From the sequence record OR424388.1: DNA of 64,000 nt; one strand, 5' to 3'. This document shows, one piece after another, positions 52,696 through 53,496 of the stretch (position 1 is its first letter; every line of letters starts with the position of its first letter). Position numbers and translations under genes: made by a program. Source of the DNA: Escherichia phage HEMP5. The notes below the pieces were generated by a model that had not been told where the DNA came from, ran no database searches, and saw only the letters and a list, made by a program, of their open reading frames with translations.

Positions 52696-52782
52696 TGGTG
52701 CGAGAAGTGGGACTCGAACCCACAAGGAAATCATTCCGCAGCATTTTAAGTGCTGTGCCTTTACCAATTTGACCATTCTCGC
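52696..52782 (-). tRNA. tRNA-Leu (anticodon UAA), long variable arm, CCA encoded
   Basis: Hand-folded: GCGAGAA...CAGCA-CTTAAAA-TGCTG, variable arm, GTGGG-TTCGAGT-CCCAC-TTCTCGC-A-CCA. Confidence 0.9.
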
Positions 52783-52788
52783 GCTATA

Positions 52789-53397
52789 TTATTTATTACG
52801 TGAAAAAGACTGTTCTATCAATTCTGGACACTTTCGTTCTATCCATTTTCTAGCTTTTTGTGGGCTTATACCTATTATTTTAGCAGCTTTACTAACCCAT
52901 CCAAATTTAGAATAATCGATTTTAACTAATTCTTCGTAAATTTCATCAGTTAAAATCTTTTCATTAATATTTACCAGTAAATGATATAATTTATTATCAT
53001 TAGCAATTTTAATGAATCTTTTATAGTTTCCGCCTTTACTTAAACCTAATGAAGTAATTGCAGATGATATAGTAGCCGAATTTAATAGTGCGTTTAAAAT
53101 TTCTTCATCACTAACATTATAACGCTTTCTATTATTTTTAATATTTTTACCAGCAAAAGTATCAGTTTGCGAATGGCAATTTGGACATAATAATCTTAAA
53201 TTTGATTTAAGATGATTTTTGTTATTTCCATCAATATGGTCTAATTGTAGAACAATATGCTTATTTTGCCATTTTGAAATTTTACAAATTGCGCACTCAT
53301 ATGGAAAAATATTTTCTTTTATTATTTTGTCTTTCAGCTTTCCTGTACTAAAATTTGGATGTTTTCCTTCAAAAATTTCAGCTAATTTAGTATCCAT
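52789..53397 (-). CDS. Free-standing HNH homing-endonuclease-like protein (Mob-like), 202 aa
   Basis: ORF track 52789..53421 begins at a TTG. ATG at 53397. HNH/zinc motif YECAICK...LQLDHIDGNNKNHLKSNLRLLCPNCHSQT. Helix-turn-helix-like C-terminus. Stop lies 6 nt from the 5' end of tRNA-Leu. Confidence 0.85.
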   Translation of the reverse strand: MDTKLAEIFEGKHPNFSTGKLKDKIIKENIFPYECAICKISKWQNKHIVLQLDHIDGNNKNHLKSNLRLLCPNCHSQTDTFAGKNIKNNRKRYNVSDEEILNALLNSATISSAITSLGLSKGGNYKRFIKIANDNKLYHLLVNINEKILTDEIYEELVKIDYSKFGWVSKAAKIIGISPQKARKWIERKCPELIEQSFSRNK

Positions 53398-53421
53398 AAT
53401 ATGATTCCCAATTATTAACAA
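52789..53421 (-). mobile_element. HNH homing-endonuclease gene cassette abutting the 5' end of the tRNA cluster
   Basis: HNH ORF occupies the slot immediately 5' of tRNA-Leu, where T4 carries tRNA-Gln. Confidence 0.6.
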
Positions 53422-53496
53422 AGGCTCTCAAACAAGAACCCTTGATGATAGAGGGTATTAATCAGTGCGGTATGAGTTAATAATAACAAATAATTC

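Follow-up and report, generated by a model that had tools for sequence, protein, structure and literature searches.

The tRNA cluster of Escherichia phage HEMP5 (OR424388.1) raises the question of what became of one transfer RNA (tRNA) gene, tRNA-Gln(UUG). In phage T4 the cluster is ordered Gln-Leu-Gly-Pro-Ser-Thr-Ile-segB-Arg, and 1 nt separates tRNA-Gln from the downstream tRNA-Leu. In HEMP5 an open reading frame (ORF) for an HNH endonuclease of 202 amino acids (aa) occupies the place of tRNA-Gln, as was found in the window, the stretch of 64,000 nt of this genome that was analyzed here. A preliminary description of the window had counted seven tRNAs, with no tRNA-Gln among them, and had suggested that tRNA-Gln was replaced or disrupted by a mobile endonuclease gene. 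From the comparison of this locus with its relatives, we consider it practically certain that an HNH endonuclease gene replaced the body of tRNA-Gln(UUG) at the head of the cluster.

Junctions of the HNH gene and remnants of tRNA-Gln

The window contains a T4-type (Tequatrovirus) tRNA cluster on the minus strand, in which ARAGORN recognized exactly seven tRNAs in the 64 kb, Leu, Gly, Pro, Ser, Thr, Ile(CAU) and Arg (Table 1), and no tRNA-Gln. Rfam at a permissive E-value also yielded these seven within 50000-55000, without any further degenerate tRNA, and across the HNH region no tRNA match was obtained even at E ≤ 1. The count given in the preliminary description was thus borne out by both programs, and its statement that T4 tRNA-Gln immediately precedes tRNA-Leu agreed with the T4 sequence.

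In T4, a leader of about 97 nt spans the distance from the end of gene trna.2 to tRNA-Gln, and the leader of the window differs from it only once in about 95 nt. This near-perfect collinearity ends with TGGGAAT, the first 7 nt of T4 tRNA-Gln. As a bare 7-mer, TGGGAAT is not above chance, with 5 copies in the window vs. 10.4 expected from shuffles; it is meaningful because it closes the roughly 95 nt that are collinear with the T4 leader preceding tRNA-Gln. The preliminary description had wavered between a remnant and chance, and it is this collinearity, not the frequency of the 7-mer, that established a real remnant. After TGGGAAT the window departs into the ORF, and identity returns at AGC-GCGAGAATGG, which comprises the last 2 nt of tRNA-Gln, the spacer base and tRNA-Leu. 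In the phages teqhad, Pu-Krd-SF6 and pSe_SNUABM_01, in which position 8 is still T, 9 nt of tRNA-Gln (TGGGAATTA) are kept.

At the other end, direct reading confirmed that the stop codon of the 202-aa ORF lies 6 nt upstream of tRNA-Leu, as described before. The AGC that closes the 6-nt spacer TATAGC equals nt 72-73 of T4 tRNA-Gln plus the 1-nt Gln/Leu spacer, two retained 3' bases of tRNA-Gln being weak evidence when taken alone. Altogether, nt 10-71 of tRNA-Gln (62 nt) were swapped for about 616 nt that are nearly pure ORF, since the non-coding sequence of the insert itself amounts to 4-5 nt before the ATG and 3 nt after the stop. tRNA-Gln is neither split nor intron-bearing here, because nt 1-7 (or 1-9) and at most nt 72-73 are left and no D, anticodon or T arm is present.

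Carriers and non-carriers of the HNH gene

Junctions were mapped in 16 loci, 10 with the HNH gene (HNH+, the window included) and 6 without it (HNH-; T4, T6, T2, JK1, RB51, and F25). The spacing from anchor to anchor was 671 nt in every carrier vs. 117 nt in every non-carrier, with identical junctions in the 10 carrier loci, and all six HNH-less relatives have an intact tRNA-Gln at exactly this junction. This evidence supported the replacement of tRNA-Gln by the endonuclease gene that had been suggested before; the word "mobile" in that suggestion is better read as "probably mobile", in keeping with the population pattern and the homology described below. The preliminary description had also named two findings that would speak against it, a tRNA-Gln elsewhere and a lineage that never had tRNA-Gln beside tRNA-Leu. 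The alignments showed that tRNA-Gln was formerly next to tRNA-Leu, and tRNA-Gln was absent both from the window and from the complete T4_ev151 genome, which encodes an HNH protein 100% identical to that of the window and has 7 tRNAs, all in the cluster.

The HNH allele is not special to HEMP5, as the insert was found in 63 deposited phage genomes at ≥95% nucleotide identity, in one place per record among those listed. All carriers were Tequatrovirus-like and infect Escherichia, Shigella, Yersinia, or Salmonella; the carriers examined here have 6 to 10 tRNAs, with Gln in none of them. Matches covering ≥80% of tRNA-Gln came from 486 phage records and fall into two alleles, a T4-type and an RB51-type, 89% identical to each other. 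No record in the collection covered ≥80% of the 2.7-kb region of the window, because the window has both the HNH gene and, in the place of segB, a nuclease gene that is rare.

Presence or absence at one fixed site among collinear relatives, with identical junctions, is characteristic of homing genes and was found for the HNH gene. Within 25 nt of the junction, the leader hairpin came in at least 5 variants among the carriers, which also had 2 downstream tRNA-Leu/Pro haplotypes, and most of these variants and haplotypes occurred in non-carriers as well; the insert therefore stands on differing flanking haplotypes, as is expected of an element that moves independently of its background. All four combinations of HNH or tRNA-Gln with a 171-aa ORF located upstream exist as well. 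T4 with tRNA-Gln and T4_ev151 with HNH have no 171-aa ORF, and the ORF is present in JK1 and T2 with tRNA-Gln and in the window, teqhad, CM8, and phiD1 with HNH. The leader and tRNA-Leu showed no systematic difference between HNH+ and HNH- phages, and no clear co-conversion tract was visible in the 16 loci.

The two tRNA-Gln alleles (about 135 and about 343 records) differ at 8 of 73 positions, all of them in the anticodon stem and compensatory, with both flanks identical. tRNA-Pro has a similar two-allele pattern, in the anticodon and T stems. Evasion of a DNA endonuclease or of a host anticodon nuclease might underlie this pattern.

Characteristics of the HNH protein

The protein consists of an N-terminal HNH/zinc-finger domain (residues ~1-88) and two small helical modules resembling helix-turn-helix (HTH) domains (97-141 and 151-201). 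It is a full-length member of PHROG 14736 (E = 5e-124), and ten further PHROGs were matched, 8 of which are annotated as HNH endonuclease. In GenBank, dozens of entries call the gene "HNH endonuclease" or "similar to T5 TflIV". Residues C35, C38, H54, N66, C71, P72, N73, C74, and H75 were invariant in 26 full-length homologues and represent the HNH catalytic motif framed by two CxxC pairs (C35/C38 and C71/C74), with the features of a beta-beta-alpha-metal fold and of the structural zinc site of group 1 HNH nucleases. Residues G166, W167, and P179 of a C-terminal motif were likewise invariant. AlphaFold, run with the alignment of the 26 homologues, predicted an N-terminal beta-beta-alpha domain and the two helical modules joined by flexible linkers (predicted local distance difference test, pLDDT, 89.7; predicted template modelling score, pTM, 0.50). 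No GIY-YIG match was obtained, and the motif present is that of HNH. Among 10 alleles, 18 sites of the ORF were variable, with 3 non-synonymous differences (H47Y, R90K, and R92S), and one allele had an in-frame insertion of 9 nt. The ORF is clearly intact, and these allele sequences point clearly to purifying selection.

Relatives and their tRNA contexts

In the protein database, about 5,500 homologues were found at E ≤ 1e-5. The closest diverged orthologue, P0002 (68% identical; locus L020), lies 14 nt 3' of an intact tRNA-Gln(UUG) in a T4-like contig with synteny in gene 1, 57A, 57B, ip, and trna.4/.3/.2, and P0003 and P0004 (57-58%) stand at the head of the tRNA cluster in other T4-like contigs. 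Six more full-length relatives directly follow tRNA-Gln(UUG), those of Bacillus phage Thrax1, L027/L028 (one contig with L040), L035, L037, L038, and L075. The tRNA-Gln-adjacent relatives come from a Bacillus phage and from T4-like and other uncultured metagenomic phage contigs. Other full-length relatives follow Tyr, Glu, Ile2, Trp, Cys, Leu, or Asn, or have no nearby tRNA. The position directly 3' of tRNA-Gln(UUG) thus accounts for 7 of 20 full-length contexts, which are not phylogenetically independent. The tRNA-Gln genes beside these relatives had nothing in common beyond universal tRNA features, and no target motif was derivable from them.

A sample from IMG/VR gave 76 unique loci, recovered by an alignment-based scan, whereas scans with a single protein or with a 23-nt leader motif returned no matches. 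A tRNA lay within 700 nt in 65 of the 76 loci. A same-strand tRNA was found ≤100 nt upstream in 33 of them (Tyr 6, Leu-UAA 6, Gln-UUG 4, and others), and the next tRNA began within ~15 nt of the stop codon in 21, most commonly Leu-UAA (7). The HNH clade as a whole resides in phage tRNA arrays, and a stop codon abutting tRNA-Leu-UAA is recurrent in it. With its homology to F-TflIV of phage T5 and its residence in a tRNA array, the gene of the window belongs among the F-TflIV-like HNH genes of such arrays.

Several arrangements in this collection were observed in passing. In the Edwardsiella phage PEi20 (NC_028683, 76575-79823), an intact unannotated ORF of 156 aa (L018, 1300-1770) lies between tRNA-Leu(UAA) and tRNA-Met(CAU); its product carries an HTH-like segment at the N terminus and, at the C terminus, an HNH domain with 55% identity to that of the window, and the end of the ORF, with its stop codon, reaches 10 nt into the next tRNA. 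In L026, upstream of P0008 (44% identical), there is an apparent 5' half of a tRNA (1416-1455; GGACCAGTAGTTCAGTGGTAGAACATCGGACCTTCTTAA) with no 3' half, and a tRNA-Lys(UUU) call of the unusual length of 87 nt (2049-2135), which has a similar acceptor stem, is overlapped by the stop codon of P0008. Here, too, an HNH insertion may have disrupted a tRNA. In L038 an HNH homologue (226-960; 39% identical) stands between two tRNA-Gln(UUG) genes of very different sequence (80-166 and 965-1038), the upstream one being an 87-nt call with an extra arm. In L023/L024/L025 (1501-2936; uncultured phage), an HNH homologue (42%) and a SegE-like GIY-YIG ORF are two tRNAs apart, each wedged between tRNA genes; like the window, this array harbors differing endonuclease families.

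Comparison with known endonucleases of tRNA arrays

The closest functional precedent is SegB of T4, and the closest named homologue is F-TflIV of T5. SegB is a GIY-YIG homing endonuclease in the T4 tRNA cluster that recognizes a T-loop motif of tRNA genes and drives the replacement of the T2L tRNA region (PMC2330249). Like the HNH gene, segB is free-standing, resides in the same T-even tRNA cluster, encodes ~220 aa and is present or absent among close relatives. It abuts tRNA-Arg, so that tRNA processing truncates its messenger RNA (mRNA), and the HNH gene likewise abuts the next tRNA; restraint by tRNA processing was proposed for segB/tRNA-Arg and for the T5 enzymes by the authors who described SegB (PMC2330249). 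SegB differs in being a GIY-YIG rather than an HNH enzyme, in having no sequence similarity to the HNH protein, and in its site at Ile/Arg rather than Gln/Leu. Moreover, SegB was proven to home and to displace the tRNA genes of a rival phage, whereas the HNH gene is known here from its sequence.

F-TflIV (hegA) is an H-N-H site-specific endonuclease of the T5 tRNA region (PMC2330249, PMC5714182). In a tblastn comparison, it was 34.7% identical to the HNH protein over 84% of the query (residues 16-184; E = 5e-15), it has the same architecture of HNH and C-terminal HTH, and it directly follows tRNA-Ile2 in a tRNA array. In contrast to the gene of the window, it belongs to another phage family, has another neighboring tRNA and replaced no tRNA. 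MobA-E of T4 fall into the same superfamily group as the HNH protein in the classification of His-Me finger endonucleases (PMC5714182). As free-standing HNH homing endonucleases of T-even genomes they have their lifestyle in common with it, but they are not detectably closer than the generic HNH motif and are located between protein-coding genes instead of in a tRNA array.

Another endonuclease of the same cluster, present in RB51 and CM8, is also 202 aa long and occupies the position of tRNA-Pro, between tRNA-Gly and tRNA-Ser, where it leaves a diverged 5' fragment of tRNA-Pro of ~20 nt. This enzyme and the HNH protein have a 24-aa C-terminal DNA-binding-like motif in common (12 of 24 residues identical), and both match PHROG 16521. 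The RB51/CM8 enzyme differs in being of the GIY-YIG/group-I-intron-endonuclease type (PHROG 314; TIGR01453, 47.6 bits, below the cut-off). It was considered as a paralogue of the HNH protein and rejected, as the common sequence is confined to the 24-aa motif. The two replacements occur independently, RB51 being Gln+ Pro-, the window Gln- Pro+, and CM8 lacking both tRNAs. Several papers have noted that HNH or homing endonuclease genes are associated with tRNA arrays of phages and of mycobacteria (PMC6409571), and full-text literature searches found no description of the tRNA-Gln replacement, its junctions or its target.

Putative expression signals in the leader

An element resembling a T4 middle promoter, with a MotA box, lies in front of the leader (Table 1). 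Part of it coincides with the stop codon of the 171-aa ORF located upstream; it is kept in 16 of the 16 loci, and its equivalent is annotated "promoter" in phage Lutter. A sigma-70 scan reported nothing at the proposed site. The leader includes an 11-bp hairpin (53419-53444), in the loop region of which the haplotype differences are located and which was not significantly stabler than shuffled sequence (-20 kcal/mol, z = -1.55). The only element resembling a Shine-Dalgarno (SD) sequence is GGGA, which belongs to the tRNA-Gln remnant and precedes the ATG by 8 nt. It is weak, and we infer that it serves as the SD sequence.

Proposed model and alternative explanations

Considering all the above results, we propose that a free-standing F-TflIV-like HNH homing-endonuclease gene replaced the tRNA-Gln body, which is probably the best overall explanation of the locus. 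According to this model, transcription of the tRNA precursor would start at the conserved MotA-type middle promoter, with the HNH ORF as its first cistron, and translation of the ORF would depend on the weak SD sequence supplied by the tRNA-Gln remnant. Ribonuclease P (RNase P) would then cut at the 5' end of tRNA-Leu, 6 nt past the stop codon, and so part the HNH mRNA from the tRNAs; as this cut would leave an unprotected 3' end of the mRNA, expression is likely to be low. In a mixed infection, the enzyme would cut or nick the HNH-less allele in or next to tRNA-Gln, and recombinational repair would copy the HNH gene in, with the leader and tRNA-Leu as homology arms, thus converting Gln+ to HNH+ Gln-. 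Since these flanks are the same in HNH+ and HNH- phages, the recognition site would have to include the deleted tRNA-Gln body or the Gln/Leu junction, which would render carriers self-immune. T4 tRNA genes are dispensable on common hosts; the loss of tRNA-Gln would therefore be tolerated and the allele could persist. As judged from the sequences, homing is a somewhat favored mechanism of spread.

Several points weigh against this explanation. Pfam HNH (PF01844) matched the protein with 17.3 bits (E = 0.005), below the gathering score of 21.4, and a Foldseek search against the Protein Data Bank (PDB) gave nothing significant. The Pfam shortfall is marginal and is outweighed by the evidence of motif and fold, and close homologues carry precomputed PF01844 matches. 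The HNH allele is in the minority (~63 vs. 486 records), unlike an efficient and unopposed homing element, and the diversity of the insert (1.3%, vs. 1.2% for the flanking tRNAs) bears no signature of a recent sweep. What suggests mobility, cleavage, and homing is the population pattern together with homology. The middle promoter is likewise putative, assigned from the MotA-box consensus and the annotation of the Lutter record, and the SD sequence is weak, with an anti-SD duplex energy of -4.2 to -5.9 kcal/mol vs. -8.1 in the relative L020. Adjacency to tRNA-Gln was rejected as a rule for the clade, as Gln makes up 4 of the 33 upstream neighbors in IMG/VR and stands behind Tyr and Leu; any link to tRNA-Gln would be confined to the full-length subgroup.

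The replacement itself might have taken two steps, in that the HNH gene landed 3' of an intact tRNA-Gln and a later deletion removed tRNA-Gln from nt 10 onward together with the ribosome-binding site of the gene, after which the present allele spread by ordinary recombination and/or homing. This history differs from the account above only in the origin of the allele. It would fit L020 and the six other full-length relatives, in each of which an SD-bearing spacer of 14-59 nt separates the gene from an intact tRNA-Gln(UUG) upstream, and also the Tequatrovirus cassette, which has almost no 5' untranslated region (UTR) of its own and only a weak SD sequence. Yet no Gln+ HNH+ Tequatrovirus was seen among the records, which are of cultured phages, the arrangement of L020 is covered by no phage record, and T4-type clusters, with only 1 nt between Gln and Leu, never had a spacer for such a landing. 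The AG at the 3' junction fits a single internal replacement, but 2 nt are too short to decide. We consider the two-step origin possible, though it is the less likely history.

An alternative of another kind is that the ORF encodes an HNH protein that does not home, active or inactive, retained for some other function, for example to interfere with co-infecting phages, to nick DNA or to process it, and that its patchy distribution arose from ordinary homologous recombination in a mosaic hot spot. The combination of purifying selection with a minority allele that shows no sweep would agree with this, and so would the highly mosaic character of the region, in which several unrelated ORFs swap in and out. 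We nevertheless regard it as unlikely, because identical junctions, one fixed site, a nuclease with small DNA-binding modules and a clade residing in tRNA arrays are hallmarks of free-standing homing genes, and because site-specific endonuclease activity is known for the characterized relatives in tRNA arrays and homing is proven for SegB (PMC2330249). Hardly any weight can be given to the possibility that tRNA-Gln was never there, or moved, and that TGGGAAT is a chance 7-mer. The lack of enrichment of the 7-mer would allow it, but the alignments already refute it: the 7-mer ends a collinear leader that precedes tRNA-Gln in six relatives, 9 nt are kept in three carriers, and a relocated tRNA-Gln was found neither in the window nor in a complete HNH+ genome.

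Returning to the F-TflIV-like homing gene, we would raise as a tentative and rather doubtful extension that this HNH lineage has sub-lineages each recognizing one tRNA gene, that of the window homing on tRNA-Gln(UUG) or on the Gln/Leu junction. It is prompted by the 7 of 20 full-length relatives that directly follow tRNA-Gln(UUG). If this were true, such enzymes would drive the gain, loss and exchange of tRNA genes in phage arrays, tRNA-Gln would be in the course of active erasure from the Tequatrovirus population, and the two tRNA-Gln alleles could represent cleavage-sensitive and cleavage-resistant forms.

The locus, in which a probably mobile nuclease gene sits among phage tRNA genes, is tidy but fairly ordinary, modest rather than surprising. 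It provides a natural example, resolved to the base, of a selfish endonuclease gene that deleted a cargo gene, here a tRNA, instead of slipping between genes. T4-like phages vary in their number of tRNAs, and such replacement explains some of this variation. The turnover of phage tRNA repertoires bears on codon adaptation and on evasion of host defenses that target tRNAs. The uncharacterized enzyme has a well-defined candidate target, the T4 leader-tRNA-Gln-tRNA-Leu segment, and T4 and T4_ev151, which differ at the locus in just this way, offer a natural pair of predicted sensitive and immune alleles. Its relatives in phage tRNA arrays, often abutting a tRNA, could be a lead for finding nucleases specific for tRNA genes.

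Features of the locus and neighboring ORFs

Table 1. Positions of the HNH gene, its junctions, the tRNA genes and neighboring features (window coordinates unless a locus is named)
Feature	Position	Strand	Basis and remarks
HNH endonuclease ORF, stop included	52789-53397	minus	202 aa from ATG at 53397; 210 aa from upstream TTG
Spacer TATAGC, HNH stop to tRNA-Leu, 6 nt	52783-52788	minus	Direct reading and junction comparison, 16 loci
Junction/5' UTR CATATT	53398-53403	minus	Junction alignments; where relatives have T first, TA = tRNA-Gln nt 8-9
tRNA-Gln(UUG) remnant nt 1-7, TGGGAAT	53404-53410	minus	Collinear alignment with T4 and JK1; 6 nt upstream of ATG
Leader in common with T4, there preceding tRNA-Gln	53411-53479	minus	Alignment
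T4 middle-promoter-like element	53480-53504	minus	MotA box TGCTTTA 53498-53504, 12-nt spacer, TATTAT 53480-53485
tRNA-Leu(UAA)	52696-52782	minus	ARAGORN and Rfam, 59.3 bits; 87/87 identical to T4; heads the cluster here; right-hand homology arm
Remainder of tRNA subcluster 1: Gly, Pro, Ser, Thr, Ile(CAU)	52283-52690	minus	ARAGORN, Rfam
tRNA-Gly	52617-52690	minus	ARAGORN and Rfam; identical to T4
tRNA-Pro	52532-52606	minus	ARAGORN and Rfam; identical to T4
tRNA-Ser	52441-52530	minus	ARAGORN and Rfam; identical to T4
tRNA-Thr	52362-52436	minus	ARAGORN and Rfam; 69/75 vs. T4
tRNA-Ile(CAU)	52283-52356	minus	Called "Met"(cat) by ARAGORN; = T4 tRNA-Ile; 73/74 vs. T4
tRNA-Arg(UCU)	51517-51591	minus	ARAGORN and Rfam; set apart by a gap; 75/75 vs. 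T4
Second nuclease ORF, 223 aa, at the segB position of T4	51554-52225	minus	Unrelated to the HNH cassette
171-aa ORF, PHROG 2290	53497-54012	minus	Between trna.2 and the tRNA leader
RB51/CM8 endonuclease	CM8: L003 3027-3635; RB51: L014 2087-2695		
tRNA-Gln alleles	T4: L001 3959-4031; RB51: L014 1801-1873		Also L004, L013

The second nuclease ORF, of 223 aa, had no similarity to SegB in BLASTP. It matched PHROG 15137 ("endonuclease"; E = 1e-40) and, weakly, Pfam Phage_endo_I and a resolvase-like C-terminal domain. Most of it was present in only 4 records from three phages (vB_Eco_F25, IME341, and EcWhh-1), with 100% identity only to vB_Eco_F25. This ORF has no stop codon of its own, running 38 nt into tRNA-Arg and ending at the TAA of the anticodon loop (TTCTAA); after processing by RNase P its mRNA would therefore lack a stop codon. 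Upstream of this ORF, a tRNA-like fragment (GATTAGGTAGAGCAGTCAAC) was compared with the tRNAs of the retrieved loci and set aside, as it matched none of them.

The tRNA cluster is a hot spot of gene-for-tRNA swaps. ORFs at the tRNA-Thr position, between tRNA-Ser and tRNA-Ile, were seen in Lutter (L012, 2512-2994), pSe_SNUABM_01 (L010, 2510-2992), and T2 (L016, 2341-2742), and T6 was without both tRNA-Pro and tRNA-Ser. The 171-aa ORF is an independent presence/absence polymorphism, absent from T4, T6, RB51, F25, T4_ev151, and ACG-C40 and present in T2, JK1, teqhad, CM8, and phiD1, and its stop codon overlaps the MotA-box-like TGCTTTA.

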